Of a stretch of 64,000 bases of DNA, positions 9,638 to 35,418 are shown one piece after another (within the stretch, counting starts at the first letter, position 1; the number at the start of each line of letters is the position of its first letter). The notes under the pieces are model-generated. The model was not told where the DNA came from. It was given only the letters and a program-made list of their open reading frames with translations, and did no database searches. This stretch comes from Acutalibacteraceae bacterium (GTDB lineage: Bacteria > Bacillota > Clostridia > Oscillospirales > Acutalibacteraceae), in the NCBI GenBank assembly GCA_045576295.1, contig JAZNGF010000035.1:58-64057 (forward strand), written 5' to 3'. The translations under genes and the position numbers were made by a program.

Positions 9638-9656
9638 TTTTTTTGCAATTTAATAT

Positions 9657-18378: not shown

Positions 18379-18632
18379 TTGAACTTTTGCCTTTAAAGTG
18401 GTATACTAACACTGCCAAACAAACTTAATAAACAGAAGCTGGGTATTTCCCCTTTGCGGGGGGTATTATGCTCTTTTTTGGTTATCTTATCGATATGAAT
18501 TTGGTAAAAACGCAAATTCCATCGGTGGGATGATCGGGTTATGATACCCCCATTCTGTTTGAGTTTGTTTGGCGACAATCGGGGTTTGCGTTTTTCGGTG
18601 CGTTCGACTTCGGTTGGCGCACTTTTTTGTTT
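18379..18632 (+). promoter_or_regulatory. Candidate structured 5' leader, copy a (promoter, nested helices, cUUCGg-loop terminator)
   Basis: Promoter: TTGAAC (18379-18384), 17-nt spacer, TGg-TATACT (18402-18407). Helices: GGGGGTATTATG 18459-18470 / TATGATACCCCC 18540-18551; ATCTTATCGAT 18484-18494 / ATCGGTGGGAT 18521-18531; GAATTTG 18497-18503 / CAAATTC 18513-18519. The terminator hairpin at 18597-18622 is followed by T6 at 18623-18628. The 3' module at 18576-18632 is nearly identical to 30564-30620 and 35104-35160. Confidence 0.6.
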
Positions 18633-18646
18633 TATGGGGTGTTTTT

Positions 18647-19102
18647 ATGACCGCAAAAAGACTAATGTTCTTGTTTTTATCCTTAACCATAATTTTATCT
18701 GCCTGCAAATATTCTAATAAAACGATTAGCGAAACCCCTGCCGAAGAGCCTGCATACGAAGTTTTTAAAATAAATATATATGCTGAATGTGTTTCAAACG
18801 ATTCGGTAGGCAATGAATGGGTTCAAGAATACTTTATGGATGGGCAAAGAATTTATAGTGGGCACCAAATAACACTGCCGTTAAATGAGCCACCCGTTTT
18901 TAAAACCATAACCGCAACTATCGAAGAGGTTGACAAGTACCCCGATATATCATCAAAAGATATATCCTTTGAAATAAAAGACGGCAAAGAAAGCCACAAA
19001 ACGGTGGTTGTTACCGAAGGCGATGGATGCCATAAAGGCCGCGAAGCAGTTTGGAATGTAAAGGTATCGGTTGAAAAATTGTTGAATGAAGAATTGCCAT
19101 AA
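18647..19102 (+). CDS. Lipoprotein of unknown function
   Basis: ATG at 18647 behind a GGGGTG RBS. Signal peptide with lipobox: MTAKRLMFLFLSLTIILSAC. The longer track ORF (18569) would read through the terminator hairpin and is unlikely. Confidence 0.7.
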   Translation: MTAKRLMFLFLSLTIILSACKYSNKTISETPAEEPAYEVFKINIYAECVSNDSVGNEWVQEYFMDGQRIYSGHQITLPLNEPPVFKTITATIEEVDKYPDISSKDISFEIKDGKESHKTVVVTEGDGCHKGREAVWNVKVSVEKLLNEELP

Positions 19103-19106
19103 ACTG

Positions 19107-19268
19107 TTGACTTGATATTTTTTATGTGGTATAATGATCGGCGTGAAATGAACAAATAATAATCTTTAAGAACGGTACAGAGATGCCGGCAAGGTTAGCA
19201 ATTTTGCGCAATATGTTTTTGCGCTCGTTTTGGTATGCACAGCCTTGCTTAAAGCAAGGCTTTTTTTG
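19107..19268 (+). promoter_or_regulatory. pyr operon promoter plus PyrR-type binding loop and attenuator terminator
   Basis: Promoter: TTGACT (19107-19112), 17-nt spacer, TGg-TATAAT (19130-19135). The motif CTTTAAGAAC-GGTA-CAGAGA-TGCC-GGCAAGG (19163-19197) matches the PyrR motif (UUUAA...stem-CAGAGA-stem...AAGG), with a compensated stem. The terminator is CAGCCTTGCTT-aa-AGCAAGGCT followed by T7 (19240-19268). Confidence 0.65.
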
Positions 19269-19302
19269 TGCCGTAAACATAGAAAGATAGAAAGGTGCAA
19301 CA

Positions 19303-20562
19303 ATGAAAGCGATTTTTGAAGGCGGAAAGGTTTATATGGGCGGCAAGTTTTCATGTGCCCCCCTTTTTGTTGATGATAAAAAAGTATCTGAGCCGATTTC
19401 AGGCGGCAGTGTTGCTATTTATAATGTTAATAATTCTATTATTGTTCCCGGCTTTACAGATGTTCATGTTCATCTGCGTGAGCCGGGCTTTTCATATAAA
19501 GAAACAATCGAAAGCGGAACGCGCGCAGCCGCTGCCGGCGGCTACACCACGGTTTGCTCTATGCCAAACCTGAACCCCGCACCTGACAGCGCTGAAGCTA
19601 TAAAACAGCAGCTTAATGCAATAAAAAAAGGCGCCGCGATTAGGGTTTACCCCTACGCTTCGATAACCAAAGGGCTGAAAGGTGAGGCTCTTTCAGATAT
19701 GGAAGAACTAGCCCCGCTTTGCATTGCCTTTACGGATGATGGCAAGGGCGTTCAAAAAAATGAAATGATGCTTGAAGCAATGAAAACCGCAAAAGCTTTA
19801 GGCAAAATGATAGTTGCCCACTGTGAAGACGAAAGCCTTTTAATCGGTGGCTGTATACACGACGGCGAGTTTGCCCGCAAAAACGGTTTCCGCGGAATAT
19901 CGAGCGAGAGCGAATGGCGCCAGGTTGAGCGCGACTTAGAGCTTGCTGCCGCCACAGGATGCAAATATCATGTTTGCCACATTTCGACGAAGGAAACGGT
20001 TGGACTTATACGCCAGGCTAAAAAATCAGGCGTTGACGTTACCTGCGAAACAGCGCCACATTACCTGATTCTTTGCGACCAAGACCTTAAAGACGAAGGC
20101 AGATTTAAAATGAACCCGCCCATTAGAAGTGAGGCTGACCGCGAAGCACTTGTTGAAGGACTGATTGACGGAACGATTGATATGATAGCAACCGATCACG
20201 CGCCACATTCGGCCGAAGAAAAGAGTAAAGGGCTTAAAGGCAGTTTAATGGGGGTTTCGGGGCTTGAATGCGCATTTGCGGCGGTTTACACAAACCTTGT
20301 TAAACCGGGTGTTTTACCGCTTGAAAGGCTGATTGATGCTATGAGCATTACCCCGCGCCGCCGATTTGGAATCCCAGGCGGCACCGAAATTGGCGACGAC
20401 GCCGATTTCACGGTTATTAATTTAGATGAATCGTTCACCGTTCGCGGAGAAGATTTTATTTCAAAAGGAAAGTTCACCCCGTTTGAAGGGCGCAAATTTT
20501 ATGGAAAAGTTAAGCTAACAGCAGTGAAAGGAGAAATAGTGTGGCAAGCCACACTACACTAA
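19303..20562 (+). CDS. pyrC: Dihydroorotase
   Basis: A 419-aa ORF with the metal-binding DVHVHLREPG, the AAAGGYTTV motif and an amidohydrolase fold signature. Confidence 0.93.
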   Translation: MKAIFEGGKVYMGGKFSCAPLFVDDKKVSEPISGGSVAIYNVNNSIIVPGFTDVHVHLREPGFSYKETIESGTRAAAAGGYTTVCSMPNLNPAPDSAEAIKQQLNAIKKGAAIRVYPYASITKGLKGEALSDMEELAPLCIAFTDDGKGVQKNEMMLEAMKTAKALGKMIVAHCEDESLLIGGCIHDGEFARKNGFRGISSESEWRQVERDLELAAATGCKYHVCHISTKETVGLIRQAKKSGVDVTCETAPHYLILCDQDLKDEGRFKMNPPIRSEADREALVEGLIDGTIDMIATDHAPHSAEEKSKGLKGSLMGVSGLECAFAAVYTNLVKPGVLPLERLIDAMSITPRRRFGIPGGTEIGDDADFTVINLDESFTVRGEDFISKGKFTPFEGRKFYGKVKLTAVKGEIVWQATLH

Positions 20563-20612
20563 ATTTAAAAGCCGTGCCGTTCCTACCATTGTCGAACCAC
20601 GGCACACGGCGA

Positions 20613-20644
20613 AAATCTCCAACGCGCCGCTAATGGAGATTTTT
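20613..20644 (+). terminator. Possible internal attenuator/terminator between pyrC and carA
   Basis: AAATCTCCA-acgcgccgcta-ATGGAGATTTTT. The stem is short and only four or five U follow, so this is weak. Confidence 0.35.
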
Positions 20645-20689
20645 ATGTGCCACATACATTGATATTTTAGCGGCAGATAGGAGATTAAT

Positions 20690-21787
20690 ATGGCAGACAA
20701 AATAAACAGGAAATTAGTTTTAGAAGACGGCAGCGAATTCTATGGCACAGGCTTTGGTGATATGGGAGAACGCGTTTTTGAAATCGTTTTCAACACCTCT
20801 ATGGCAGGGTATCAAGAAATAGTATCCGACCCATCATACACAGGCCAGGGCCTTGTTATGACCTACCCGCTTATTGGCACATACGGCATAACCGACGACG
20901 ACTTTGAAAGCAAAGATATAACAATAAGCGCGCTTATCGTTAGCGAATATAACGACACTCCTTCAAACTTCCGCTACACCAAAACACTATCGGAAACACT
21001 TGAAGAAAGCCACATCCCCGGCATTCAAGGGTTCGACACAAGGATGTTAGCCAAAAAGATACGCGACAACGGAAGCTGCCGCGCAATTATAACCGATTCG
21101 TTCGTTAAAACAGAAGACGCCCTTGCAAAGATAGCCAAGGCACCCCAAAACAACAACCTTGCCGAAAAGGTTAGCTGCAAAAAGCGCTGGTATTCAAGAA
21201 CACCTAACCACAAGCTTAATGTGGTTGCGGTTGACTGCGGAATTAAACTTAGCTTCATAAAAGCGCTCAACGCTGAGCACTGCAACGTTACAATAGTTCC
21301 CTTTGGCACCACTGCCGAAGAAATTGAACTTATGAAACCCGATGGCGTGTTTATTTCAAACGGCCCCGGAAACCCGAAAGATGCCGCTGCGGTTTGCGAA
21401 CTTATTAAAGGCATTCGCGGTAAATACCCAATCTTCGGCACAGGCCTTGGCCACCAGCTTATAGGGCTTGCCTTCGGCGGCGACACATTTAAACTAAAGC
21501 CCGGCCACCGCGGCAGCACCCACGCTGTTAAAAATGTTATAACCGGCAAGTTTGATAACCCCGCGCAAAACCATGGCTACGCCGTAGATGAAGAATCACT
21601 TAAAGGCACCGGCCTTACAGTTACACACATAAACCTGTTTGATAAAACGGTTGAAGGAATGATGAACGAAGAAGAACGCATTTACAGTGTTCAGTTCCAC
21701 CCCGAAACCGCATCAGGCACAGGAGAAAGCTCACTTTTATTTAACAAATTTATTAAAGCAATGATGGAGGCGAAGAAGAATGCCTAA
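20690..21787 (+). CDS. carA: Carbamoyl-phosphate synthase small (glutaminase) subunit
   Basis: A 365-aa ORF with GATase class I motifs (GHQL variant of the GICLGHQ motif, and HPE near the C-terminus). Confidence 0.95.
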
Positions 21788-24700
21788 GCGCACAGATATT
21801 AAAAAAGTAATGGTAATAGGCTCTGGCCCTATCGTAATCGGCCAGGCAGCAGAATTCGACTATGCGGGAACACAGGCCTGCTTAGCACTTAAAGAGGAAG
21901 GCTATGAGGTTGTTCTTGTTAACTCAAACCCTGCAACAATAATGACCGACAAAGCAATTGCCGACAAGATTTATATGGAGCCGTTAACCCTTGAATATGT
22001 TGCAAAGATTATCCGCCGCGAGCGCCCCGATGCAATTGTTCCCGGCATTGGCGGCCAAACAGGCCTTAACCTTGCAATGCAACTTGAAAAGAAGGGTATT
22101 CTTGAAGAATGCCAGGTTGAACTGCTTGGAACCAGCAGCGACAGCATCGACTGCGCTGAAGACAGAGAACGCTTTAAAAACCTTTGCGAAGATTTAGGTG
22201 AGCCTGTTTTACCTTCAATCACATCGCACTCAATTGAAGAATGCTTTGAAGCCGCAAGAAAGATTGGCTTCCCCGTTGTTTTGCGCCCTGCCTTCACCCT
22301 TGGCGGAACAGGCGGCGGCTTTGCCGAAAACGAAGAAGAACTCTATGAGCTTGCTAAAAACGCACTTCGCCTTTCACCCGTAAGCGAAGTTTTGGTTGAA
22401 AAGAGCATTAAAGGCTATAAAGAAATTGAGTACGAAGTAATGCGCGACGCTAACGACACCGCCATTGCAATATGCAATATGGAAAATATCGACCCTGTTG
22501 GAATTCACACAGGCGACTCGGTTGTTGTTTGCCCTTGCCAAACACTTACCCACAAGGAATGCGCATTCCTTCGCGAGAGCGCACTTAAAATCATCCGCGC
22601 ACTTAAAATCGAGGGTGGCTGCAACGTTCAGTTCGCGCTTGACCCGCAATCGTTCGATTATTTCCTTATTGAGGTTAACCCCCGAGTTTCGCGTTCATCG
22701 GCGCTCGCATCAAAGGCAAGTGGCTACCCCATTGCAAGGGTTACCGCAAAGGTTGCCGTTGGAATGACACTTGATGAAATTATGCTTTCCAACACACCTG
22801 CCGCATTTGAACCAACACTTGACTATGTTGTTACCAAAATGCCCCGCTTCCCCTTTGATAAGTTTGTTGATGCAAACAACAGCCTTTCAACCCAGATGAA
22901 GGCAACAGGCGAAGTTATGGCAATTGGCCGCAGCATTGAAGAAAGCCTTCTTAAAGCCGTTCGCTCGCTTGAAATCGGCGTTTGCCACCTTTATATGAAG
23001 AAGTTCGATTCATACACCGAAGATGAACTTTTACAGTATATCCGCACCGGAACCGACGACCGTTTTTATGCGATTGCAGAGCTTTTCCGCCGCGGAACCG
23101 ACATTGGCCGAGTTTGCGATGCAACACAGATTGATATGTTCTTCCTTGAAAAACTTCGCCACATCACCGAGCTTGAAAACGAAGGTAAACAGAACCCGAT
23201 GGATGCCGAAACACTTAAAAAGCTTAAAAAATACGGTTTTTCTGACAAGTATATAGCCCAGCTTTGGAATGTTAGCGAGCTTGACGTTTGGAACTTCAGA
23301 AGAGAAAGCGGCATAACACCTGTTTACAAAATGATTGACACCTGCGCCGGCGAATTCAAAAGCTACACCCCATACTTCTATTCAACCTATGAAACCGAAA
23401 ACGAGCTTCAAATATCAGATAAGAAAAAAATTATCGTTTTAGGTTCGGGCCCCATCAGAATAGGCCAGGGCGTTGAGTTCGACTATTCAACAGTTCACGC
23501 AGTTATGACCATCAAGCAGATGGGCTGCGAAGCTATAATCATCAATAACAACCCCGAAACCGTATCAACCGACTACACCTGTTCTGATAAATTATATTTC
23601 GAGCCGCTCACTGTAGAAGATGTTATGAACATCATTGAGCTTGAAAAGCCCTATGGCGTTATTGCATCACTTGGCGGACAAACCGCAATTAACCTTGCAG
23701 AACCGCTTATGAACCGCGGCGTTAACATTATTGGCACAGGTGTTGAAGCTATCGACCGCGCCGAAAACCGCGACAGCTTTGAAAAACTTCTAAGCGAACT
23801 CGGAATCCCACAGCCACCCGGCCGCGCCGTTACAACAATTGAAGACGGCGTTAAAGCCGCTGCTGATATTGGCTACCCTGTTCTTGTTCGCCCAAGCTTT
23901 GTTCTTGGCGGACGCGCTATGCAGATTGTTGCAAACGAAGAAATGCTTCGCCACTACCTTAAAACTGCGGTTGAAATCGATGCTGATCGCCCCGTTCTTG
24001 TTGACAGATATATTTCGGGTAAAGAGGTTGAAATCGACGCCGTTTGCGACGGAACCGACGTTTTCGCACCCGGTATTATGGAACTTGTTGAGCGCACTGG
24101 CGTTCACTCGGGCGACTCGATAAGCGTTTATCCAACCTTCAGCATTTCACAAAAGGTTAAAGATACTATTCTTGACTACACCAAGAAATTAGGCCTTGGA
24201 ATTGGCATTGTTGGCCTATTCAACATTCAGTTTATTGTTGATGCAAACGAAGATGTTTACGTAATCGAAGTAAACCCGCGTTCTTCAAGAACCGTTCCAT
24301 TCCTTTCAAAATCAACAGGCTACAACCTTGCCGACATTGGAACACTTGTAATTTTAGGCCATTCACTTAAAGACCAGGGCTTCACAACATCTTACCCCGA
24401 AGAAAAGCCAAGATGGTATGTTAAAACTCCTGCCTTCTCGTTCTCGAAACTTCGCGGGCTTGATGCCTACCTTTCACCCGAAATGAAATCAACAGGTGAA
24501 GCTATAGGTTACGACGACAGCATGACCCGCGCGCTTTACAAATCACTTCGTGCATCGGGTATGAGCGTTGTGAACTACGGCACAGTGCTTGTAACCATCA
24601 ACGATAGCGACAAAGAGGAAGCACTTCCCCTTATTAAGCGTTTTTATGATATGGGCTTTAACATTGAAGCCACAAGCGGCACAGCCCAGTTCTTAAAAGA

Positions 24701-24953
24701 GCACGGCATTCGCACAAGAATTCGCAAGAAGATAAGCGAAGGCAGTGAAGAAATTTTAGATTCTATCCGCCAAGGCTATGTAAGCTATGTTATCAACACG
24801 CGTGATGTTAACTCTTCGGGCGTACTGTCAGACGGGTATGAAATTCGCCGCTGCGCCTGCGAAAACAACATCACCACCTTTACTTCACTCGACACTGTAA
24901 AGGCGCTCTTAGATGTTCTTGAAGAAACAACAATGAAGGTTTCGGAAATTTAG
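21780..24953 (+). CDS. carB: Carbamoyl-phosphate synthase large subunit
   Basis: A 1057-aa ORF with duplicated ATP-grasp halves ([20 protein letters not shown] and [20 protein letters not shown]) and a C-terminal MGS-like domain. It overlaps carA by 8 nt. Confidence 0.97.
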
Positions 24954-24977
24954 TTTTTCGGCTGAATGGAGATTATA

Positions 24978-25718
24978 ATGAAACAAGAATTTTTTACGGT
25001 TGAATCAACAAGATTCCTTGCTAAAAACACCTTTGAAACGGTGCTTGCAGGCAATACCGACGGCATAAGGCCCGGGCAGTTTGTTAACATTATGCTATCT
25101 GGCAAATACCTGCGCCGCCCCATTTCGGTTTGTAATTCTGAGGCAGGAAAGCTCACTATTGTTTACAAAACCGTGGGAGATGGCACCAAGGCTTTAAGCG
25201 AAGTAAAAATCGGCGAAAAGCTCGATTTATTAACACAACTTGGAAATGGATACGATTTAAGTACTAGCGGAGATACCCCCCTGCTTATCGGCGGAGGGGT
25301 TGGCATACCGCCGCTTTATATGCTTTGCAAGGAACTTTTAAAAAAGGGCGTTACACCCAGCGTTATTTTAGGTTTTAATTCTGCCGATGAGGTTTTTTAT
25401 GAAGAAGAATTCTCGGCTCTTGGAGTTCACGTTTACATCGCAACGGCCGACGGCAGCCGTGGAACAAAAGGTTTTGTTACCGATGTTATGAAAAACCTTA
25501 ATTATTCATACTTTTACACCTGTGGGCCAATGCCTATGTTTAGGGCAATAAATGCAGTTGCCACAACCGAAGGGCAGTTAAGCTTTGAAGAGCGAATGGG
25601 CTGCGGCTTTGGCGCATGCATGGGCTGCAGCTGCAAAACACTAACAGGCAATAAGCGCATTTGCCGCGAAGGCCCCGTTATGAAAAGGAGCGAGATAATA
25701 TGGCAGACACAAGAGTAA
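24978..25718 (+). CDS. pyrK: Dihydroorotate dehydrogenase B electron-transfer subunit
   Basis: FAD/NAD-binding fold (RRPISV) and a C-terminal 2Fe-2S cysteine cluster (CGFGACMGCSC...C). ATG 24978 is preferred over 24966 because of the GGAGA RBS. Confidence 0.88.
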   Translation: MKQEFFTVESTRFLAKNTFETVLAGNTDGIRPGQFVNIMLSGKYLRRPISVCNSEAGKLTIVYKTVGDGTKALSEVKIGEKLDLLTQLGNGYDLSTSGDTPLLIGGGVGIPPLYMLCKELLKKGVTPSVILGFNSADEVFYEEEFSALGVHVYIATADGSRGTKGFVTDVMKNLNYSYFYTCGPMPMFRAINAVATTEGQLSFEERMGCGFGACMGCSCKTLTGNKRICREGPVMKRSEIIWQTQE

Positions 25719-26611
25719 CCCTTGGCGGCATCGAACTGCAAAACCCTGTTATCCCCGCGAGCGGAACCTTTGGCTACGGGCGCGAGTTTGTCGAGCTTTA
25801 CGATATTAGCATTTTAGGCTCAATCTCACTTAAGGGAACAACACTTGAGCCGCGCTTTGGCAACCCAACACCCAGAATTGCCGAATGCCCAAACGGAATG
25901 CTTAACAGCGTTGGGCTTCAAAACCCCGGAATTGAAGCGGTTTTACGCGATGAAATTCCAAACCTTAAAAAGATTTACGGAAAACCCGTTGTGCTTAATG
26001 TTGGCGGCTTTAGCGAAGAAGAATTTGCAAAGGTTTGCGCCGCAGCCGACAAGGAAGACAGCATTGGCATAATTGAACTTAACATAAGCTGCCCCAACCT
26101 TCACGCAGGCGGCAAAAACTTCGGCGTTTCGGCCGAGGGCGCAACCCGCGCAACCCGCGCAGCAAAATCGGCAACAAGCAAACCCGTTTTTGTAAAGCTC
26201 ACCCCCAATGTTACCGACATAACCGAAATCGCCGTTGCCTGTGAAGAGGCAGGGGCCGATGGCATCAGCCTTATAAACACACTGCTTGGAATGAGAATTG
26301 ACCTTAAAACCAACAAGCCTGTGCTTTATAACAAAATGGGCGGTTTTTCAGGCCCTGCAATACTTCCTGTTGCACTTCGCATGGTTTACCAGGTTTATGA
26401 AGCGGTTAAAATCCCGATTATCGGCATGGGCGGCGTTTCTACTGCGGCCGATGTTATCGAAATGATGTTAGCAGGCGCCACCGCAGTTCAGGTAGGGGCT
26501 GCAAACCTTGTGAACCCCTTTGCCTGCCGCGATATTATAAACGACCTGCCCCACACTATGGAGCAGTATGGAATAAACAGTTTAACTGAAATTATAGGAG
26601 GAGCACACTAA
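25700..26611 (+). CDS. pyrD: Dihydroorotate dehydrogenase B catalytic subunit
   Basis: ATG at 25700 behind AAGGAG. Class 1 DHODH motifs are present (NPVIPASGTFGYG, NISCPN). Confidence 0.93.
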   Translation: MADTRVTLGGIELQNPVIPASGTFGYGREFVELYDISILGSISLKGTTLEPRFGNPTPRIAECPNGMLNSVGLQNPGIEAVLRDEIPNLKKIYGKPVVLNVGGFSEEEFAKVCAAADKEDSIGIIELNISCPNLHAGGKNFGVSAEGATRATRAAKSATSKPVFVKLTPNVTDITEIAVACEEAGADGISLINTLLGMRIDLKTNKPVLYNKMGGFSGPAILPVALRMVYQVYEAVKIPIIGMGGVSTAADVIEMMLAGATAVQVGAANLVNPFACRDIINDLPHTMEQYGINSLTEIIGGAH

Positions 26612-26612
26612 T

Positions 26613-27311
26613 ATGGGAAAAGACGTTATGATAGCTTGCGACTTTTCGAGCGCAAAAGAAACTATCGAATTTTTAGACAAGTTTACAGGCAGAAAGCCTT
26701 TTGTTAAAATCGGAATGGAGCTTTTTTATGCCGAAGGCCCCGAAATCATTAAACAGATTAAAAGCCGCGGCCACAAAATATTTTTAGATTTAAAACTTCA
26801 CGATATACCGAACACCGTTAAAAAAGCAATGAACGTTTTATCGAAGCTCGATGTTGATATGTGCAACCTTCACGCCGCAGGAACATCGGCTATGATGAAG
26901 GCAGCAATTGAGGGCTTAACAAGAGAAGACGGCACCCGCCCCCTGCTTGTTGCTGTTACACAGCTTACTTCAACCGATGAAGCACGTATGCAAAACGAAC
27001 TTCTTATTAACGAAACAATGGAAAACACCGTTGTGAAATATGCGCAGAACGCAAAAGCATCGGGCCTTGACGGCGTTGTTTGCTCACCGCTTGAAGCAGG
27101 CCTTGTTCACGAAAACTGTGGCAAAGGATTTGTAACCGTAACCCCCGGAATTCGCTTCGCGGGGGACAGCGTTGGCGATCAGTCGCGCATTACAACCCCA
27201 TTAAAGGCAAAAGAAATCGGCTCTGACTATATTGTTGTTGGCCGTTCTATTACCGCAGCAGAAGACCCGGTTGCTGCATACAACCGCTGTGTTGAAGAAT
27301 TTATTGACTAA
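26613..27311 (+). CDS. pyrF: Orotidine-5'-phosphate decarboxylase
   Basis: A 232-aa ORF with the DLKLHDIPNT motif. Confidence 0.94.
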   Translation: MGKDVMIACDFSSAKETIEFLDKFTGRKPFVKIGMELFYAEGPEIIKQIKSRGHKIFLDLKLHDIPNTVKKAMNVLSKLDVDMCNLHAAGTSAMMKAAIEGLTREDGTRPLLVAVTQLTSTDEARMQNELLINETMENTVVKYAQNAKASGLDGVVCSPLEAGLVHENCGKGFVTVTPGIRFAGDSVGDQSRITTPLKAKEIGSDYIVVGRSITAAEDPVAAYNRCVEEFID

Positions 27312-27332
27312 TTAAAACATAAGGAGAAAGTT

Positions 27333-27980
27333 ATGAACGGAAATGTTAAAACACTCATAGCAAAAGACTTACTTTCAATCAAGGCTGTATTTTTAAGCCC
27401 TAACGAACCCTTCACATGGGCAAGCGGCATTAAAAGCCCCATTTACTGCGATAACCGCTTAACACTTACAGCGCCCGAGGTTAGAAACGACATTGAAAAC
27501 GCACTTGCAGAATCGGTGAAGGCTAACTTCCCCGAATGCGAAGTTCTTATGGGAACATCAACTGCAGGTATTGCTCACGCCGCTATCACAGGCCACATTT
27601 TAGGGCTTCCTATGGGCTATGTTCGCGGTTCAAGCAAAGATCACGGCCGCCAGAACAGAATTGAAGGCAGGCTTGAAAAGGGCCAAAAGGTTGTTGTTGT
27701 TGAAGACCTTATTTCAACAGGCGGCAGCGTTATCGACGTTGTTGAAGCGCTTCGCGAAGCAGGCGCCGAGGTTCTTGGCATTGTTAGCATCTTCACCTAT
27801 GGCATGAAAAAAGGACTTGAAAGGCTTGCAGCCGCTAATGTTACAAACTACAGCTTAACCGATTTCGACGAAATCGTTGCAGTTGCCGCCGCTGAAGGCT
27901 ACATTGAAGAAGGCGACACCGCAAGGCTTAAGGCATTCCGCGACAACCCGTCTGACGAGTCGTGGATAGGTGGCAAATAA
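27333..27980 (+). CDS. pyrE: Orotate phosphoribosyltransferase
   Basis: A 215-aa ORF with the PRPP-binding motif [13 protein letters not shown]. Confidence 0.93.
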
Positions 27981-28894
27981 TGAGAAGCCTTATAGACATT
28001 AGGGAGCTTTCGGCTGAAGAGATTAACAGCCTTATAGACTGCGCTAAAGATATTATCGCAAACCCCGAAAAATACAGCGAAAAATGCAAGGGTAAAAAGC
28101 TGGCATCGCTGTTTTTTGAACCGTCAACCAGAACCCGCCTTAGCTTTGAGGCGGCTATGTATGAGCTTGGCGGCAATGTTCTTGGCTTTTCAGAAGCAAT
28201 GAGCAGCTCTGCCGCAAAGGGCGAAAGCGTTGCCGACACGGCTAAAACAGTTAGCTGTTACGCCGATATTATTGCAATGCGCCACCCGAAAGAGGGCGCT
28301 CCGCTTGTGGCTTCGATGAACGCATCAATCCCCGTTATAAACGCGGGCGACGGCGGCCACAACCACCCAACCCAAACCCTTGCCGACCTTTGCACAATAA
28401 GCCTTGAAAAAGGCAGGCTACACGACCTAAAGGTGGGCTTCTGCGGTGACTTAAAGTTTGGCCGCACAGTTCATTCGCTAATTTCGGCCCTTTCAAGGTA
28501 CACAGGAATTAAGGTTTACCTTATTTCGCCCGAAGAACTTAAACTGCCAAGCTATATTAAAAACGGCGTGCTTCAAAAATGCGGCATTGAATACGTTCAA
28601 ACAACCGATTTAGACAGTGTTATCGGCGAGCTTGACATTTTATATATGACAAGGGTTCAGCGCGAACGCTTCTTCAGCGAAGAGGAATATTTGCGCCTTA
28701 AAGACAGTTACATTTTAACCGAAGAAAAACTTTTAGGCGCGAAGGAAGACCTTTGCATTATGCATCCGCTGCCGCGCGTTAACGAAATTTCGGTTGGAAT
28801 TGACAACGATAAAAGGGCTTGCTACTTTAAGCAGGTGCTTTACGGCAAGTATATGAGAATGGCGCTTATTATGATGCTTTTGGGGGTGGAATAA
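27980..28894 (+). CDS. pyrB: Aspartate carbamoyltransferase catalytic subunit
   Basis: The ATG overlaps the pyrE stop (TAATG). Motifs: [24 protein letters not shown]. Confidence 0.94.
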
Positions 28895-29326
28895 TTGAAC
28901 ATTGACTCAATTAAAAACGGCATAGTTATCGACCATATTACTGCAGGCCGCGGAATGGAGATTTACAGGCTTTTGAATTTAGAAGAGCTTGACTGCCCCG
29001 TTGCCATAATCAAAAATGTGTTGAGCGCCAAGGCAGGAAAAAAAGATATTATCAAGATCGACAGTGAGATGCCGATTGATTTTAACCTGTTAGGCTATGT
29101 TGACCCAGGCATCACAGTTAACATTATTAAAGATTCAAAGGTTGCCGAAAAGGTGCACCCAACCCTTCCAACAAGGCTCACAGGGGTTTTAAAATGCAAA
29201 AACCCCCGTTGCATTACCTCAACCGAGCAGGAGCTGCAACAGATTTTCTATCTTGACGACAGCAACAACGCAATTTACCGTTGCCTATACTGCGAATCTA
29301 AAAGCGATAAAATGTTTAATAAATAA
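28895..29326 (+). CDS. pyrI: Aspartate carbamoyltransferase regulatory subunit
   Basis: A 143-aa ORF with a TTG start directly after the pyrB stop. It has the C-terminal zinc motif CKNPRC...CLYC. Confidence 0.88.
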   Translation: MNIDSIKNGIVIDHITAGRGMEIYRLLNLEELDCPVAIIKNVLSAKAGKKDIIKIDSEMPIDFNLLGYVDPGITVNIIKDSKVAEKVHPTLPTRLTGVLKCKNPRCITSTEQELQQIFYLDDSNNAIYRCLYCESKSDKMFNK

Positions 29327-29343
29327 TATTTTCGTGCAAACAA

Positions 29344-29382
29344 ACCCCGTGTGTTGCTAACCTGTAACACGCGGGGATTTTA
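29344..29382 (+). terminator. Intrinsic terminator ending the pyr operon
   Basis: CCCCGTGTGTT...AACACGCGGGG followed by ATTTT. Confidence 0.75.
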
Positions 29383-29563
29383 AATTTTACTGAACTAATT
29401 ATAAATATTAAAATGCAATAGAAAGTATCAGCATTTCAAGTAAGCAAACACGCAATAAAAATACGCAAATTTTGCATTCCAACCGAAAACTAAATATACA
29501 ATTTTTGCATAAAATTATTGCCTAATACATAAAATAGTGATATAATACGTATGAGGTGATGTT

Positions 29564-30034
29564 ATGACATTACGAGAACTTAGAAAAATCAAAGGGATAA
29601 CACAGCAAGAAGCCGCAGATTATGTAGGGGTGCCATTAAGGACTTACTCTAATTATGAAAACGATCCTCAAAAGCAGTCCAGCATTAAATATAAGTATAT
29701 AATGGAAAAACTATATACCCACGGATATATCGATGAAGAAAACGGGGTGCTGACATTAGAAGAGATCAAAAAGACCTGTGTAAATATTCTTTCCAAATAT
29801 CCTGTTGAATATTGCTATTTGTTTGGGTCATACGCAAAGGGCAACGCAAAACCATCAAGTGATGTGGATTTACTAATCCACACCACTCTTTCAGGATTAA
29901 AGTTCTACGGTTTGGTTGAAGAACTGCGCGAACAGTTGAAGAAAAAGGTTGATGTGCTTGACCAAAAACAAATAATGGGTAACTTTGAACTTACAAATGA
30001 AATACTGAAGGATGGCGTAAAGATTTATGGATAA
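29564..30034 (+). CDS. mntA: MntA-type nucleotidyltransferase antitoxin with fused N-terminal XRE HTH domain
   Basis: The N-terminus is an HTH (LRELRKIKGITQQEAADYVGVPLRTYSNYE). The C-terminus carries the minimal NTase motif (LFGSYAKGNAKPSSDVDLLI). It overlaps the downstream DUF86 gene by 8 nt. Confidence 0.8.
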   Translation: MTLRELRKIKGITQQEAADYVGVPLRTYSNYENDPQKQSSIKYKYIMEKLYTHGYIDEENGVLTLEEIKKTCVNILSKYPVEYCYLFGSYAKGNAKPSSDVDLLIHTTLSGLKFYGLVEELREQLKKKVDVLDQKQIMGNFELTNEILKDGVKIYG

Positions 30035-30362
30035 TATAAAAAATGACGCTTACTATATTAAGAAAATGCTAAAGGACATTAAGTTTATTATAAATAACAC
30101 AAAGGGAATAACACTTGACGAGCTTGAAGCAAACGAGGTGCTGTGCGACTCTGTTCTTTTTCGTTTGATACAAATCTCTGAAAACTCAGTGAAACTTACC
30201 CCTGATTTTAAGGCAAGGCACAACGATATTCCTTGGCAGGCCATCAAGGGTATGAGAAACAAAATTGTTCACGAATACGGCGATGTTGAGTTTGATATTG
30301 TTCATCAAACAGTTACAGAGGATATACCCGAAATTTGTAAGAAGCTTGACAGTCTTGTGTGA
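30027..30362 (+). CDS. hepT: HepT-type (DUF86) RNase toxin
   Basis: A 111-aa ORF with the Rx4HxY motif (RNKIVHEY), paired with the NTase gene. Confidence 0.85.
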   Translation: MDNIKNDAYYIKKMLKDIKFIINNTKGITLDELEANEVLCDSVLFRLIQISENSVKLTPDFKARHNDIPWQAIKGMRNKIVHEYGDVEFDIVHQTVTEDIPEICKKLDSLV

Positions 30363-30419
30363 TTGTTTTATAAGGAAATGATAACCAAGATTGCAGAAGT
30401 ATGTGTTTAAATTATTTTG

Positions 30420-30620
30420 TTGTAAAAGCGTTAAAAGTGTGATAAAATAAACTCACCACACAAATCATTATAGGCGTATTACAAGAGAATGTTTTTTGTT
30501 TCGGCAAAAACACATTCTCCGCTTGTGCATTCCTTGTGATATGCCAAAAGATTTGTGTGGTAACAATCTGGAGCTATGTGTTTTTCGGTGCGTAGCTTCG
30601 GTTGCGCACTTTTTTGTTTT
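30420..30620 (+). promoter_or_regulatory. Candidate structured 5' leader, copy b (promoter, nested helices, cUUCGg-loop terminator)
   Basis: Promoter: TTGTAA (30420-30425), 17-nt spacer, TGtgaTAAAAT (30443-30448). Helices: P1 30456-30466/30550-30560; P2 30473-30484/30534-30545; P3 30485-30498/30505-30519. The terminator hairpin at 30587-30609 is followed by T6 at 30610-30615. Confidence 0.65.
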
Positions 30621-30633
30621 TACGAGGTATTAA

Positions 30634-30867
30634 ATGAAAGACAAGTCAGAGATTTACAAAACATTCGGCAAAAGATTAAAGGCAATAAGAAAAGAACTTA
30701 AAATGACTCAGATTGATTTTTCGAAGCACTTGTCGATAGATAGAAGCCTTTACACAAAGTATGAAACCGGAGCATCTATGCCACCCGGCTATAAGCTATA
30801 TGAAATGGCTAAAAATCTTGGTGTATCAACTGATTTTTTATTAGGGCTTAACGATAATGATAATTAG
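30634..30867 (+). CDS. Small XRE-family HTH regulator (77 aa), paralog of 35176-35418
   Basis: HTH_3 sequence (LKAIRKELKMTQIDFSKHLSIDRSLYTKYETG) and the shared tail DFLLGLNDNDN. A GAGG RBS precedes it. Confidence 0.85.
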   Translation: MKDKSEIYKTFGKRLKAIRKELKMTQIDFSKHLSIDRSLYTKYETGASMPPGYKLYEMAKNLGVSTDFLLGLNDNDN

Positions 30868-30883
30868 TGTTTTACATAAAATG

Positions 30884-30907
30884 CGGTGCCACACGGCACC
30901 GTTTTTT
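30884..30907 (+). terminator. Intrinsic terminator after the XRE gene
   Basis: CGGTGCC-acac-GGCACCG followed by T6. Confidence 0.8.
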
Positions 30908-30968
30908 AGTATCGTTTTTTAATTGTTAACAAATAGTAAAAAGTGCGTGAAATATGGTGCTCTTCCCG

Positions 30969-30997
30969 TTGACATATAATTTTTAGGGTGTTAAAAT
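30969..30997 (+). promoter_or_regulatory. Putative promoter of the ABC exporter pair
   Basis: TTGACA (30969-30974), a 17-nt spacer, TAAAAT (30992-30997). Confidence 0.55.
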
Positions 30998-31055
30998 ATA
31001 CTAATATGTTAGATTTAATATGAAATTTTAACGTTCAACCACGGGGGTTCAACAA

Positions 31056-32795
31056 ATGATTTTAAAATTACTAAAATGTGTGCGAGAATACAAAAAAACC
31101 TCGATACTCACGCCGATTTTGGTTACAGGCGAGGTTATTCTTGAATGCTTAATACCGTTTATTATTGCAAAGCTGGTTTCGGCAATTCAGGCCGGTGCAA
31201 CGGTTGGCGAAATTGCTAAATACGGCGGTGTTTTAACCGTTATGGCGGCGTTATCACTCATATTCGGTGCGGTTGCAGGTTCAACTGCCGCAACAGCTTC
31301 TTGCGGTTTTGCAAAGAATATACGAAAAGATCTATTTTATAAAATTCAAGACTTTTCGTTTGCGAATATCGACAGGTTTTCAACCTCATCGCTGGTTACA
31401 AGGCTCACAACCGACATAACCAATGTTCAAATGTCGTATATGATGATTATCAGAACCGCGGTTAGAGGCCCGCTTATGATAATTTTCTCGTTTGTTATGG
31501 CGGCCGTTATGGGCGGAAAGCTCGCGTTCATTTTTGCCTGTCTTTTACCTGTTTTGGCGTTCTTCTTCCTTTTTATCATCAAAAAGGTTATGCCTATATT
31601 TAAGCGAGCCTTTAAAAAATACGATAACCTCAACCGCGAAATTCAAGAAAACGTTCGCGGAATAAGGGTTGTTAAATCATTTGTTAGAGAAGACTACGAA
31701 AAGAAAAAATTCAACACCGCATCTGACGGGGTTAGAGAAGACTTCACAGTGGCTGATAAAATTATGGTGCTTTCAAACCCGCTTTTGCAGCTCTGCCTTT
31801 ATATTAATATGATAGCCATTATGTTCTTTGGCTCTAAAATCATAATTTCGGGCGGCGCGCTTAACGTTGGCCAGCTTTCGGCACTTATCACCTACGGCTT
31901 CCAGATTTTAATGAGCCTTATGATGATTTCGATGGTTTTTGTTATGATAACAATTTCAGGCGAATCGGCCGCGCGTATTGTTGAGGTGCTGGGCGAAAAA
32001 TCAACAATCACAAACCCCGAAAACCCCGAAATGCAGGTTAAAAACGGCAGCATTGACTTTAACGGTGTTTCGTTTAAATATTCCGAAAAGGCCAAAGAAA
32101 TGGCGCTTTCAAGCATCGAGCTTCACATTAAATCGGGCGAAACCATTGGAATTATTGGCGGAACAGGGTCGGGCAAAAGCTCGCTTATACAGTTAATACC
32201 CCGCCTTTACGATGCAACCGAGGGCTCAGTTATGGTTGGCGGACGTGATGTTAGAAAGTACGACATTGAATCGCTTCGAAATGCGGTTTCGGTTGTTTTG
32301 CAGAAAAACGAGCTCTTTTCGGGAACAATTAAAGAAAACCTTCGCTGGGGCAACCCCGACGCGAGCGATGAAGAGCTGATTGAAGCCTGCAAAATGGCGG
32401 CGGCACACGAGTTTGTGTCATCCTTCCCCGATGGATACGACACATTCATTGAGCAGGGCGGCGCCAATGTTTCGGGCGGGCAGAAACAGCGCCTTTGCAT
32501 TGCAAGGGCATTGCTTAAAAAGCCTAAGATTTTAATTTTAGATGATTCCACAAGCGCGGTTGACACCAAAACCGATGCAATGATTCGCGCCGCGTTTGAA
32601 AAATATATTCCCGAAACCACAAAGCTTATCATCGCTCAACGCATTTCTTCAGTTGAAAAGGCCGACCGCATTGTGGTTATGGACGACGGCAAGATAAACG
32701 ACGTTGGCACCCACGAAGAGCTGCTAAAGCGCAATGAAATCTACAAAGATGTTTACGAATCTCAAAACAAGGCAGGTGTTAGCGATGAGAGGTAG
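31056..32795 (+). CDS. ABC exporter half-transporter (TMD-NBD), degenerate-site subunit
   Basis: Six-helix TMD, Walker A GGTGSGKSS, signature VSGGQKQR, and Walker B ILILDD followed by S instead of the catalytic E. Confidence 0.9.
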   Translation: MILKLLKCVREYKKTSILTPILVTGEVILECLIPFIIAKLVSAIQAGATVGEIAKYGGVLTVMAALSLIFGAVAGSTAATASCGFAKNIRKDLFYKIQDFSFANIDRFSTSSLVTRLTTDITNVQMSYMMIIRTAVRGPLMIIFSFVMAAVMGGKLAFIFACLLPVLAFFFLFIIKKVMPIFKRAFKKYDNLNREIQENVRGIRVVKSFVREDYEKKKFNTASDGVREDFTVADKIMVLSNPLLQLCLYINMIAIMFFGSKIIISGGALNVGQLSALITYGFQILMSLMMISMVFVMITISGESAARIVEVLGEKSTITNPENPEMQVKNGSIDFNGVSFKYSEKAKEMALSSIELHIKSGETIGIIGGTGSGKSSLIQLIPRLYDATEGSVMVGGRDVRKYDIESLRNAVSVVLQKNELFSGTIKENLRWGNPDASDEELIEACKMAAAHEFVSSFPDGYDTFIEQGGANVSGGQKQRLCIARALLKKPKILILDDSTSAVDTKTDAMIRAAFEKYIPETTKLIIAQRISSVEKADRIVVMDDGKINDVGTHEELLKRNEIYKDVYESQNKAGVSDER

Positions 32796-34719
32796 ACCGA
32801 ATATGAAGCAAATGCCCAAAGGCGGGCCGCGACCTGCACCAAAAAAAGGCGTGTTCGGCAGGCTTATTAAAGAGTTGTTCCGCGCCTACCCCGTAGCGCT
32901 GCCTATTGTTATTGTTGCAATTTTAGTAAACGCTATTGTTTCATCAATTCCTGCAGTGTTTATGCAAAACATTTACAAGCTTATCGAAGAGTCACTTAAA
33001 GATTCAACCCCTTGGGCAAAAGCCTCAGGCGAAATTATCAAATTCGTTATTATGCTGGCGACTCTTTACCTTATTTCTATCATTTTAGGCTTTTTATATA
33101 ACCGAATGATGGCAACCATCACCCAAGGCTTTTTGCACAAAATGCGCCTTAAAATGTTTGGCGTTATGCAAGGGCTTCCTGTTAAGTTTTTCGATTCTAA
33201 CAATAATGGCGATATTATGAGTTATTACACCAACGACGTTGACACTATGCGCCAGTTGGTATCACAAAGCCTGCCGCACATTTTAACATCGGTTACAACC
33301 GTTTTAACCGTTGCCTTTTTAATGCTTTACTATAGCGTTTGGCTATTCCTTGTTGTATGCGTTGGCGTTGTTGCAATGCTTATGGTTACTTCAAAGGTGG
33401 GCGGAAATTCCTCGAAATACTTTATCGGCCAGCAACGTTCGGTTGCAGGCACCGAAGGCTATGTTGAAGAAATGATGAACGGCCAAAAGGTTGTTAAGGT
33501 TTTCTGCCACGAAAAGGAAAGCCGCGAAGGATTCGACAAGCTTAACGACGAGCTGTTTGAAAACTCACGAAAAGCCCATAAATACGCAAACATTTTAATG
33601 CCCATTCTTGGAAATATAGGCAACATTCTTTATGTTATTGTTGCGCTCGTTGGCGGAACACTTTTGGTTTTAAATGTTCCGAATGTTTCAATTTCGGGGC
33701 TTGCTTTAGGCATAAACATTGTGGTTCCCTTCCTTAATATGACCAAGCAGTTTTCGGGCAATATTGGGCAGGTTTCATCGCAAATCAACTCAATCATAAT
33801 GGGCCTTGCAGGTGCATCGCGCGTGTTTGAGCTTATTGATGAAAAGCCCGAGGTAGACAACGGCTATGTAACACTTGTTAATGTTCGCGAAGAAAACGGC
33901 AAACTTACCGAATGCAAAGAAAAAACAGGAATGTGGGCTTGGAAACACCCCCACTCGGCCGACGGCTCGGTTACCTATACAAAGCTTTTGGGCGATGTTA
34001 GAATGAACGAGGTTGATTTTGGCTATGTTCCCGAAAAAATCGTGCTTAAAAATGTTTCGCTTTATGCTAAGCCCGGGCAAAAGGTTGCCTTTGTTGGCGC
34101 AACAGGCGCCGGCAAAACAACCATAACCAACCTTATTAACAGGTTTTACGACATTGCCGACGGTAAGATTAGGTATGACGGCATTAACATTAACAAAATC
34201 AAAAAGGCCGACCTTCGCCGTTCGCTTGGCATTGTTCTGCAAGATATTAACCTTTTCACCGGAACGGTTATGGATAACATCCGCTACGGCAAGCTTGACG
34301 CAACTGATGAAGAATGCATTGCCGCCGCACGCCTTGCCGGGGCCGACAGTTTTATTAGGCGCCTGCCCGATGGCTATAACACGCAGCTTTCGGCCAGCAG
34401 TGCCAACCTTTCGCAAGGCCAGCGCCAGCTTATTGCCATAGCGCGCGCCGCCGTTAACGACCCACCCGTTATGATTATGGACGAGGCAACATCTTCAATC
34501 GATACCAGAACCGAGGCTATAGTTCAGCGCGGAATGGACGCTTTAATGAAGGGCAGAACCGTTTTTGTTATTGCGCACCGCCTTTCAACCATTAAAAATT
34601 CCGATGTTATTATGATGCTTGATCACGGCGAGATAATCGAGCGCGGAAGCCACGATGAGCTTATGGCCAAAAAGGGCAAATACTACGAGCTTTACACCGG
34701 CGCATTCGAGCTTGATTGA
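32785..34719 (+). CDS. ABC exporter half-transporter (TMD-NBD), consensus-site subunit
   Basis: Walker A GATGAGKTT, non-canonical signature LSQGQRQ, and Walker B VMIMDEATS with the catalytic E. The start is ATG 32785 (overlapping) or 32803. Confidence 0.9.
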   Translation: MRGRPNMKQMPKGGPRPAPKKGVFGRLIKELFRAYPVALPIVIVAILVNAIVSSIPAVFMQNIYKLIEESLKDSTPWAKASGEIIKFVIMLATLYLISIILGFLYNRMMATITQGFLHKMRLKMFGVMQGLPVKFFDSNNNGDIMSYYTNDVDTMRQLVSQSLPHILTSVTTVLTVAFLMLYYSVWLFLVVCVGVVAMLMVTSKVGGNSSKYFIGQQRSVAGTEGYVEEMMNGQKVVKVFCHEKESREGFDKLNDELFENSRKAHKYANILMPILGNIGNILYVIVALVGGTLLVLNVPNVSISGLALGINIVVPFLNMTKQFSGNIGQVSSQINSIIMGLAGASRVFELIDEKPEVDNGYVTLVNVREENGKLTECKEKTGMWAWKHPHSADGSVTYTKLLGDVRMNEVDFGYVPEKIVLKNVSLYAKPGQKVAFVGATGAGKTTITNLINRFYDIADGKIRYDGININKIKKADLRRSLGIVLQDINLFTGTVMDNIRYGKLDATDEECIAAARLAGADSFIRRLPDGYNTQLSASSANLSQGQRQLIAIARAAVNDPPVMIMDEATSSIDTRTEAIVQRGMDALMKGRTVFVIAHRLSTIKNSDVIMMLDHGEIIERGSHDELMAKKGKYYELYTGAFELD

Positions 34720-34740
34720 TTAAACTGAATACACGTATAG

Positions 34741-34777
34741 TCAAGGCATTTCACTGTGTGGAGTGCCTTGATTTTTT
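34741..34777 (+). terminator. Intrinsic terminator after the ABC pair
   Basis: TCAAGGCATT...AGTGCCTTGA followed by T6. Confidence 0.8.
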
Positions 34778-34800
34778 ATAAATCTACCGTCTGCATCGTT

Positions 34801-34897
34801 GGGGCGGATGCCCTCATCCGCCCGTGCAGAGCTATGCTTTTGAATTCCCCTTGTATATCACATTAATTGCCCGCGGGACGATGTGGGCATCGTCCCC
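34801..34897. repeat. Pair of inverted, homologous GC-rich hairpins (REP/MITE-like)
   Basis: GGGGCGGATG-ccctc-ATCCGCCCG (34801-34824) and, in opposite orientation, CGGGACGATG-tgggc-ATCGTCCCC (34874-34897), separated by about 49 nt. Confidence 0.6.
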
Positions 34898-34958
34898 TAC
34901 AAGATAAATGATAAACCCCCTTTTATTTTTACAGTAAATGAATTATTAAATAAATTTA

Positions 34959-35160
34959 TTGTAAAGTGATGAAAAATGTGGTAAACTAATCTTGCGACGT
35001 AACTTCATTTGAATATTACCCAGTCGAGAGGTGCATTTTACTAAGGTAAAAATGCATACTCTTTTTCGTGCATTCTTGATTGGGTGCTGAAGTTGCGTCG
35101 CAGCAATTGGAGTTATGCGTTTTTCGGTGCGCTTAACTTCGGTTGGCGCACTTTTTTGTT
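34959..35160 (+). promoter_or_regulatory. Candidate structured 5' leader, copy c (promoter, nested helices, cUUCGg-loop terminator)
   Basis: Promoter: TTGTAA (34959-34964), 17-nt spacer, TAAACT (34982-34987). Helices: P1 34993-35007/35088-35102; P2 35018-35028/35075-35085; P3 about 35033-35041/35046-35055. The terminator hairpin at 35126-35151 is followed by T6 at 35152-35157. Confidence 0.65.
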
Positions 35161-35175
35161 TAAGAGGTTATTTTG

Positions 35176-35418
35176 ATGTTGGAATATGAAGAAATGCACA
35201 AAAACTTTTGCACAAATTTAAAGGATATGCGCAAGCAAATGCAAATGACACAAGAAGATTTTGCAAGGTTTATTGGCATTGGGCGCACATTATATACTAA
35301 ATATGAAACGTGTGCGGCAACACCCACATTTATAAAACTGCTCAAAATAATATCTGCTTTAAATGTATCAGCAGATTTTTTGTTCGGAATAAAAGCCAAC
35401 GATAATATAGATAAATAA
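35176..35418 (+). CDS. Small XRE-family HTH regulator (80 aa), paralog of 30634-30867
   Basis: ATG at 35176 behind an AGAGG RBS. HTH sequence LKDMRKQMQMTQEDFARFIGIGRTLYTKYET and tail DFLFGIKANDN. Confidence 0.85.
   Translation: MLEYEEMHKNFCTNLKDMRKQMQMTQEDFARFIGIGRTLYTKYETCAATPTFIKLLKIISALNVSADFLFGIKANDNIDK

Follow-up and report, generated by a model that had tools for sequence, protein, structure and literature searches.

The stretch of DNA analysed here (the window, 64,000 nucleotides in all) contains three copies of a leader in which an A-rich strand of the 5' domain, seg2, is complementary to seg3, the segment lying directly 5' of an intrinsic terminator. The question raised by this locus is what such a long-range helix contributes to the terminator that it abuts. 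An earlier note, made from the letters of the window without database searches, had suggested either mutually exclusive folds or a pseudoknot that senses something and communicates with the terminator. More than 200 homologous leaders, drawn from MAGs of Clostridia and from gut metagenomes, retain the seg2:seg3 pairing, and the pairing covaries among them. The reading that we favor, at a probability of roughly 0.75, is that each copy is a cis-acting transcription attenuator whose 5' domain determines whether seg2 is accessible; this reading has neither experiments nor transcript data behind it, and both termination and read-through are inferred.

Layout of the three leader copies

The three copies share a common organization. 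The 5' part consists of a sigma-70-type promoter with a TG-extended -10, a 5'-terminal helix (P1) and a structured middle, and the 3' part consists of the A-rich seg2, the 3' strand of P1, a short linker (GCRRCAAUC), seg3 in the form GGAG..UGCR-UUUUU and an intrinsic terminator with a cUUCGg loop in all three copies. A Shine-Dalgarno sequence and start codon lie 17-20 nt past the U-tract in copies a, b and c. No further copies were found in the 64,000-nt window by a fixed-spacing pattern search. The features, with copy b as the reference, are as follows.

Copy b
30420-30448, + strand: promoter, -35 TTGTAA, 17-nt spacer, TG-extended -10 TAAAAT; the same layout is aligned in homologs
30455-30466, + strand: P1 5' strand ACCACACAAAUC, partner 30551-30562 (minimum free energy (MFE) fold; P1 covariation)
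30485-30498, + strand: seg1 GAGAAUGUUUUUUG, partners seg2 (local hairpin) or seg2' (P2 extension)
30506-30520, + strand: seg2 AAAAACACAUUCUCC, strand shared with the seg2:seg3 helix
30525-30536, + strand: seg2' GUGCAUUCCUUG, alternative partner of seg1 (covariation, permutation z=-24)
30551-30562, + strand: P1 3' strand GAUUUGUGUGGU (MFE, covariation)
30564-30580, + strand: antiterminator 5' strand CAAUCUGGAGCUAUGUG, overlapping seg3 (MFE, covariation, RNAalifold)
30570-30585, + strand: seg3 GGAGCUAUGUGUUUUU, 3' strand of the seg2:seg3 helix and putative anti-antiterminator strand (duplex -16.1 kcal/mol)
30587-30615, + strand: intrinsic terminator, stem GGUGCGUAGC / GUUGCGCAC(U), loop UUCG 30597-30600, U-tract 30610-30615
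30589-30604, + strand: terminator bases that also form the antiterminator 3' strand
30634-30867, + strand: gene for a 77-aa XRE-type HTH protein, control inferred; its own terminator follows at 30883-30902

Copy a
18379-18407, + strand: promoter
18414-18425, + strand: P1 5' strand GCCAAACAAACU, partner 18562-18573
18506-18520, + strand: seg2 AAAAACGCAAAUUCC
18581-18595, + strand: seg3 GGGGUUUGCGUUUUU (duplex -19.3 kcal/mol)
18576-18590 with 18599-18616, + strand: antiterminator 5' and 3' strands (-17.0 kcal/mol)
18597-18628, + strand: terminator, loop UUCG 18609-18612, U-tract 18623-18628
18647-19102, + strand: ORF for a 151-aa lipoprotein-like protein, control inferred

Copy c
34994-35005, + strand: P1 5' strand GCGACGUAACUU, partner 35090-35101
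35048-35062, + strand: seg2 AAAAAUGCAUACUCU
35109-35124, + strand: seg3 GGAGUUAUGCGUUUUU (duplex -14.9 kcal/mol)
35104-35119 with 35128-35145, + strand: antiterminator 5' and 3' strands (-19.8 kcal/mol)
35126-35157, + strand: terminator, loop UUCG 35138-35141, U-tract 35152-35157
35173-35418, + strand: gene for an XRE-type HTH protein, control inferred

The core of the seg2:seg3 pairing joins AAAAACGCAAA (18506-18516) to TTTGCGTTTTT (18585-18595) in copy a, with 11 of 11 pairs Watson-Crick, AAAAACACAT (30506-30515) to ATGTGTTTTT (30576-30585) in copy b, with 10 of 10, and AAAAATGCAT (35048-35057) to ATGCGTTTTT (35115-35124) in copy c, with nine Watson-Crick pairs and one U-G. These coordinates and counts, as given by the earlier note for the three helices, held exactly; the length of 10-11 nt that it gave was understated. 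The helix is truly about 15 bp in each copy (in copy a, AAAAACGCAAAUUCC with GGGGUUUGCGUUUUU) and follows the consensus of seg2 AAAAAYGCA..CUCC with seg3 GGAG..UGCRUUUUU.

Homologous leaders and subtypes

Two sets of homologs were collected. The first was obtained with a terminator-derived pattern from one-genome-per-species GTDB contigs and comprised at least 120 loci, all of them in Clostridia MAGs (Oscillospiraceae, Acutalibacteraceae, Christensenellaceae, Faecousia, Ruminiclostridium and others). The second was ascertained independently with a pattern built from seg2 and the P1 3' strand only, and comprised at least 120 metagenome loci, human gut metagenomes included. Alignment A3, on which most counts below rest, is a structure-blind MAFFT alignment of 111 leaders.

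The terminator of the first pattern is present in only 12 of the 93 unique leaders of the metagenome set, so the strictly conserved terminator sequence of the first set reflects how that set was ascertained. That UUUCGGUGCG, UUCGG and CGCACUUUU are invariant in A3 is likewise an artefact of the search pattern, and those parts vary in the metagenome set. The remaining metagenome leaders have other stems and loops, yet always carry GCR-U5-C followed by a hairpin and U-tract; the mean MFE of the terminator hairpins in this set is -16.4 kcal/mol. The leader architecture itself, unlike the terminator sequence, is general across the sets.

The leaders fall into two subtypes, a long one of ~210 nt that includes copy a and a short one of ~136-175 nt that includes copies b and c. 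Conserved elements of the 5' domain in A3 are GGUAAAAA, AAUA and GCRRCAA. P1 and P2 covary strongly; P1 is 99.2% paired with double changes at six of its seven pairs, and P1 and the terminator together are 98.1% paired with 189 double changes where shuffles give 43.6. When whole leaders were aligned with MAFFT, the poor alignment of their middle limited what RNAalifold could recover to P1 and the terminator, and the 5' domain yielded no full consensus fold, least of all in the long subtype.

Several variations on this architecture were observed. Minimal variants of 136-139 nt (L017:6403-6538, L045:804-941, L080:626-761 and L096:233-371) have neither the first U-run nor seg2' and consist of P1, AAUA, P2, one hairpin (seg1:seg2, loop UUUGGUAAAAA), seg3 and the terminator; these variants may represent the family core. 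A U.A-U triple helix of the two U-runs and the A-run was also considered and was dropped because these four variants have no first U-run. The long subtype (alignment A5; for example window positions 18440-18550) contains an extra domain, GGGUAU..AUACCC, followed by a conserved U-run, and displays additional long-range complementarity, such as GGGGUAUUAU (18459-18468) with AUGAUACCCC (18540-18549), the consensus fold of the subtype being unresolved. Copies can be clustered, with two within 1.5 kb of one metagenome contig (L193:788-849 and 2309-2372) and three within 17 kb of the window (18414-35157), and this clustering suggests that there may be many copies per genome. A phage origin of the leader was rejected, as only 3 matches were found in the 2.9 million viral contigs of IMG/VR.

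Covariation of the seg2:seg3 helix

Across the 111 leaders of A3, 92.6% of the cells at the 15 pairs of the seg2:seg3 helix are paired, and double-sided changes number 119 compared with 46.7±9.3 in column shuffles (0 of 500 shuffles reached this value). Sliding the 3' strand by 1-3 columns reduces the double changes to 17-36 and pairing to 37-63%. The central pair (columns 159-269), at which the earlier note had seen a compensatory change from C-G to U-A among the three copies, is CG in 53 leaders, UA in 30 and UG in 23, and that claim held; its condition for refutation, loss of complementarity in additional homologs, was not fulfilled, the pairing being kept in more than 200 leaders. In an alignment restricted to the long subtype the helix is 94.3% paired, with 19 double changes against 9.2 in shuffles (0 of 500).

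A second line of evidence comes from duplex energies. Cognate seg2/seg3 duplexes are stronger than those with permuted partners by ~4 kcal/mol (z=-15), and this advantage survives removal of the A and U runs (z=-14) and is found within each subtype (z=-10.7 and -6.6) and in the metagenome set (z=-7.6). In the latter set an A at the seg3 position occurs only opposite U in seg2 (14 of 51 versus 0 of 41). RNAduplex energies of the helix in the window are -19.3 (a), -16.1 (b) and -14.9 (c) kcal/mol.

Two qualifications apply to these results. The shuffle controls leave phylogenetic signal in, which the slid controls and the independent second set mitigate without being equal to R-scape, and the A4-5/U4-5 run and several other positions are invariant, leaving that part of the helix without covariation information.

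An antiterminator that competes with the terminator

A second region of complementarity joins seg3 and the CAAUC before it to the terminator 5' strand, the UUCG loop and part of the terminator 3' strand. In the pseudoknot-free MFE of copy b the terminator is absent, and CAAUCUGGAGCUAUGUG (30564-30580) pairs with UGCGUAGCUUCGGUUG (30589-30604); copies a and c adopt the same antiterminator fold. As the antiterminator wins nested folding in all three copies, termination would depend on the long-range seg2:seg3 helix.

The antiterminator is itself conserved. In A3 it is 91.4% paired with 41 double-sided changes compared with 3.5±2.4 in shuffles, its pair 261-287 occurring as UA (39), UG (30) and CG (25), and permutation gives z=-6.7 for the short subtype and z=-7.8 for the metagenome set. 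Support in the long subtype alone is weaker (z=-2.7), with 14 of 3000 permutations as good. Column 261 covaries both with column 164 in seg2 and with column 287 in the terminator 5' strand, and 287 covaries in turn with 294 in the terminator 3' strand (pair 287-294 being AU in 41 leaders, GC in 40, GU in 22 and CG in 7); a column with two covarying partners is the signature of mutually exclusive helices. Run on the structure-blind alignment, RNAalifold predicts seg2:seg3 and the terminator for the full 3' part; it changes to the antiterminator once the terminator 3' strand is taken away to mimic a nascent transcript. The helices, their covariation and their mutual exclusivity are shown by these data.

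These results bear on several of the initial claims. The proposal of mutually exclusive folds that communicate with the terminator held, but through an antiterminator link that had been missed, and the compensated changes described in the terminator stem around cUUCGg were confirmed by the covariation of pair 287-294. The choice offered between mutually exclusive folds and a pseudoknot proved to be no choice, as the two are the same thing; the helix is topologically a pseudoknot across P1/P2. That the element senses something remains an inference.

Separately, enlarged terminator loops such as CUCCGGUUGG or CCCCAUUUGGGG were observed in some metagenome variants (L127, L130, L164, L170, L182 and others). 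The match between loop and upstream segment, which is AAUCGGAG or AAAUGGGG (AAUCGGAG for CUCCGGUUGG loops), is retained there, and the antiterminator therefore tracks loop changes too.

Upstream tiers of pairing

In the short subtype seg1 has two partners. Pairing between seg1 and seg2 stands at 81%, with 42 double changes where shuffles give 17, and seg1:seg2', which extends P2, is 78% paired with 55 double changes against 29.8 (permutation z=-24); pairing reaches 93% in a U-run:A-run mini-hairpin. The local hairpin seen in copy a, GAAUUUG/CAAAUUC, is 76.6% paired across the long subtype with no covariation excess over shuffles, and no conserved competitor for seg2 was found there. The claim that three segments compete for one strand thus held for the short subtype (copies b and c) and failed for the long subtype (copy a). 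For the short subtype a relay of seg2':seg1, seg1:seg2, seg2:seg3, seg3:seg4 and seg4:seg5 is likely, in which the pairings are shown and the control is inferred.

Proposed mechanism

The leaders have the general features of an intrinsic-terminator attenuator, namely a G+C-rich hairpin and U-tract between promoter and start codon on the coding strand, and a conserved antiterminator pairing that overlaps the terminator 5' strand. In the model that we propose, a promoter-proximal attenuator of ~160-215 nt would extend from P1 at the transcription start to the intrinsic terminator before a single downstream gene. In the OFF state, seg2 (the A-run and YGCA..CUCC of the 5' domain) would pair with seg3 (GGAG..UGCR and U5, directly 5' of the terminator), crossing P1/P2 as a pseudoknot and abutting the terminator stem with one or two bases between, where stacking is possible; with seg3 held in this manner, the terminator hairpin would form and transcription would stop. 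In the ON state, seg2 would be unavailable (in the short subtype, paired with seg1), and seg3 and CAAUC would pair with the terminator 5' strand, loop and part of the 3' strand as these emerge. This antiterminator would start two bases past P1, on which it may stack, and RNA polymerase would read through. The predicted role of the seg2:seg3 helix is that of an anti-antiterminator.

For copies b and c, as for the short subtype in general, seg1 would toggle between seg2 and seg2', and a change in the 5' domain could be passed down four tiers to the terminator. The 5' domain, with its invariant GGUAAAAA, AAUA and GCRRCAA elements, would control the accessibility of seg2. Both the direction of control and the effector or condition that acts on the 5' domain to set this access are inferred; candidates, which we do not rank, include a metabolite or second messenger, an unlinked RNA-binding protein, and transcription speed relative to strand exchange.

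Energies of the window copies are -15 to -19 kcal/mol for seg2:seg3, -15.5 to -20 for the antiterminator and about -14 for the terminator. A crude balance over the 111 leaders gives an OFF minus ON difference of -8.8 kcal/mol before any pseudoknot penalty. The folding tools used cannot score a pseudoknot, and the relative stability of the two states rests on an assumed penalty; our expectation, for which we have no tool result, is that this penalty is of similar size, in which case the states would be roughly balanced and switch-like.

A bolder reading, to which we give well under even odds, is that the family represents a new class of orphan riboswitch, or else senses transcription speed without any ligand. 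It would act through an unusually long strand-exchange relay of four to five tiers, with the 15-bp pseudoknot as the last link on the sensor side, and would convey a global signal, for instance a second messenger or growth state, to numerous unlinked genes for cell-surface and accessory functions in Oscillospirales and Christensenellales of the gut.

Alternative explanations

The strongest of the alternatives, though still rather unlikely, is that a dedicated RNA-binding protein (in the style of PyrR, TRAP, BglG or ANTAR, or Hfq/CsrA-like) binds the GGUAAAAA loop or the antiterminator and sets the switch without any small-molecule aptamer. The invariant single-stranded motifs GGUAAAAA, AAUA and GCRRCAA could be protein sites, and the broad, functionally mixed regulon is as expected for a global regulator. 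Against this, the leaders have no PyrR, T-box, TRAP or RAT motif, no recurrent neighbouring regulator gene was found in 120 loci (the largest clusters being LRR surface proteins and ABC transporters), and the large covariation-rich 5' domain (P1, P2 and the extra helices of the long subtype) is more typical of an aptamer. An unlinked protein is not excluded.

It is unlikely that the leader is a trans-acting stable sRNA in which seg2:seg3 forms a permanent tertiary pseudoknot without switching, the terminator does no more than end the transcript and the downstream genes are expressed by leakage or independently. In favor of an sRNA, a strong promoter and a strong terminator delimit a discrete product of 160-215 nt, several copies occur per genome (three within 17 kb) before unrelated genes, and no long-range helix of the long subtype has better support than seg2:seg3, with which no conserved local hairpin competes there. 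However, the antiterminator pairing is under selection and would be purposeless in a static RNA, and column 261 has two covarying partners. The strong promoter lies directly upstream of the leader, and in most loci a Shine-Dalgarno sequence and start codon follow, usually 17-30 nt past the U-tract, a gap that leaves no room for another promoter and therefore indicates a leader rather than a free-standing sRNA. The seg2 and seg3 sequences also differ between copies of one genome, which argues for cis action.

A ribosome-mediated (trp- or erm-type) attenuator, in which translation or stalling on a leader peptide overlapping seg1 decides between helices, is very unlikely. The 1:2 / 2:3 / 3:4 / 4:5 logic of the leader is like that of classical leader-peptide attenuators, and short ORFs are present in copies a and c. 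However, an ORF of at least four codons with Shine-Dalgarno and ATG precedes the terminator in only 14 of 111 leaders, at scattered positions with no shared sequence, and copy b has none; the changes are compensatory for base pairing and do not conserve codons, and P1 at the 5' end leaves no ribosome loading site.

Finally, the view that the complementarity is unselected and merely reflects shared ancestry or an internal duplication (with seg3 copied from seg1), to which the resemblance of seg1 to seg3 in the short subtype, the paralogy of the window copies and the invariant A-run and U-run lend some support, is also very improbable, given that compensatory and wobble changes keep the pairing in more than 200 leaders of several families, cognate partners beat non-cognate ones without the A/U runs (z=-14), sliding by 1-3 columns lowers pairing to 37-63%, and the long subtype covaries at seg2:seg3 but not at seg1:seg2.

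Comparison with known leader families

The cis-acting attenuator that we favor could not be assigned to a described family. With Rfam 15 at gathering thresholds, the leaders had no match when the whole window was searched; the only matches were an L10 ribosomal-protein leader (86.8 bits) and two tRNA genes, listed at 960-1105 (- strand) and 9562-9738 (+ strand). Searches of copies a and b in E-value mode gave only sub-threshold chance matches. Even a loose form of the T-box sequence (..GGUGGNACCGCG..) is matched by 0 of 111 leaders, and the window has no Rfam T-box match; the core of the PyrR binding loop (ARUCCAGAGAGGYU) occurs in none of the 111 leaders and a loose form of it in one; and neither TRAP GAG/UAG triplet repeats nor the RAT (BglG/SacY) consensus is found in any of the 111. 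No description of the leader family was found in the literature searched. The leader fails the membership tests for every named family examined, and is likely an undescribed family of a known attenuator or riboswitch kind.

Likenesses to known systems are nevertheless instructive. In S-box riboswitches the anti-antiterminator is the closing helix P1 of the aptamer. The S-box/SAM-I platforms resemble the leader in having three tiers, in which a sensor-domain helix sequesters the antiterminator strand and its formation allows termination; they differ in that P1 of the leader is separate and compatible with both states, and its putative anti-antiterminator is a 15-bp loop-to-tail pseudoknot. The pseudoknots of preQ1-I (B. 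subtilis queC), fluoride and ZTP riboswitches span 3-8 bp and build the ligand pocket in aptamers of small size. They too run from a 5'-domain loop to the 3' tail, compete with the expression platform and favor the terminator, whereas the leader has a helix of ~15 bp, an A-rich loop, a U-rich tail and a 5' domain of 100-170 nt. Attenuators of trp operons share the serial mutually exclusive hairpins with two partners per segment, to which the short subtype adds one tier, but the leader has no conserved leader peptide, and sensing is therefore not by ribosome stalling. The PyrR-dependent pyr attenuators share the anti-antiterminator concept, and copy a lies upstream of a pyr operon, but the core of the PyrR binding motif is absent from all 111 leaders.

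The family is abundant in uncultured gut Clostridia, including those of human gut metagenomes, and absent from Rfam. It precedes lipoproteins, BspA-type LRR and SLH surface proteins, XRE regulators and other accessory genes, and could represent a major unrecognised control point for the cell surface in dominant gut anaerobes. The seg2-seg3-seg4-seg5 covariation chain shows cleanly how helices of an expression platform co-evolve in nature. It opens the switch to a direct test by compensatory mutagenesis and recommends the family for searches for a ligand or protein.

Downstream genes and genomic neighbourhood

The genes downstream of the leaders are diverse and include BspA-type LRR proteins (8), AMP-binding enzymes (5), XRE HTH proteins (4) and zinc-ribbon proteins (4), as well as DUF6809, SHOCT, SLH and MazE/AbrB proteins and many Pfam-less proteins with lipoprotein signal peptides. 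As they share no function, they offer no clue to a ligand. In the window, each copy precedes one small gene that it is inferred to control, the 151-aa lipoprotein-like ORF or one of the two XRE proteins.

A pyr operon follows copy a (pyrC at 19303, then carAB, pyrKDFE and pyrBI). It has a strong promoter of its own (TTGACT-17-TATAAT with TG, 19107-19135) and a leader with a PyrR-like motif, GGUACAGAGAUGCC (~19175-19188), and a terminator (19241-19261) with U-tract; with these elements at 19107-19261 the operon is regulated separately from copy a. A link of copy a to pyrimidine metabolism was therefore rejected, the homologs of copy a also preceding unrelated genes. Copy a is inferred, from sequence alone, to control only the 151-aa ORF.

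A terminator-like hairpin, predicted on both strands (+ strand 30883-30902, - strand 30901-30884), follows the copy b HTH gene, and a strong promoter (TTGACA-17-TAAAAT, 30969-30997) precedes two ABC exporter genes (31056-34719). The copy b leader seems to control only the small HTH regulator, which may in turn control the exporter. Directly adjoining copy b on its upstream side are genes for an MNT-like HTH-nucleotidyltransferase (29564-30034) and a HepT-like RNase (30027-30362), a pair that resembles a toxin-antitoxin system.
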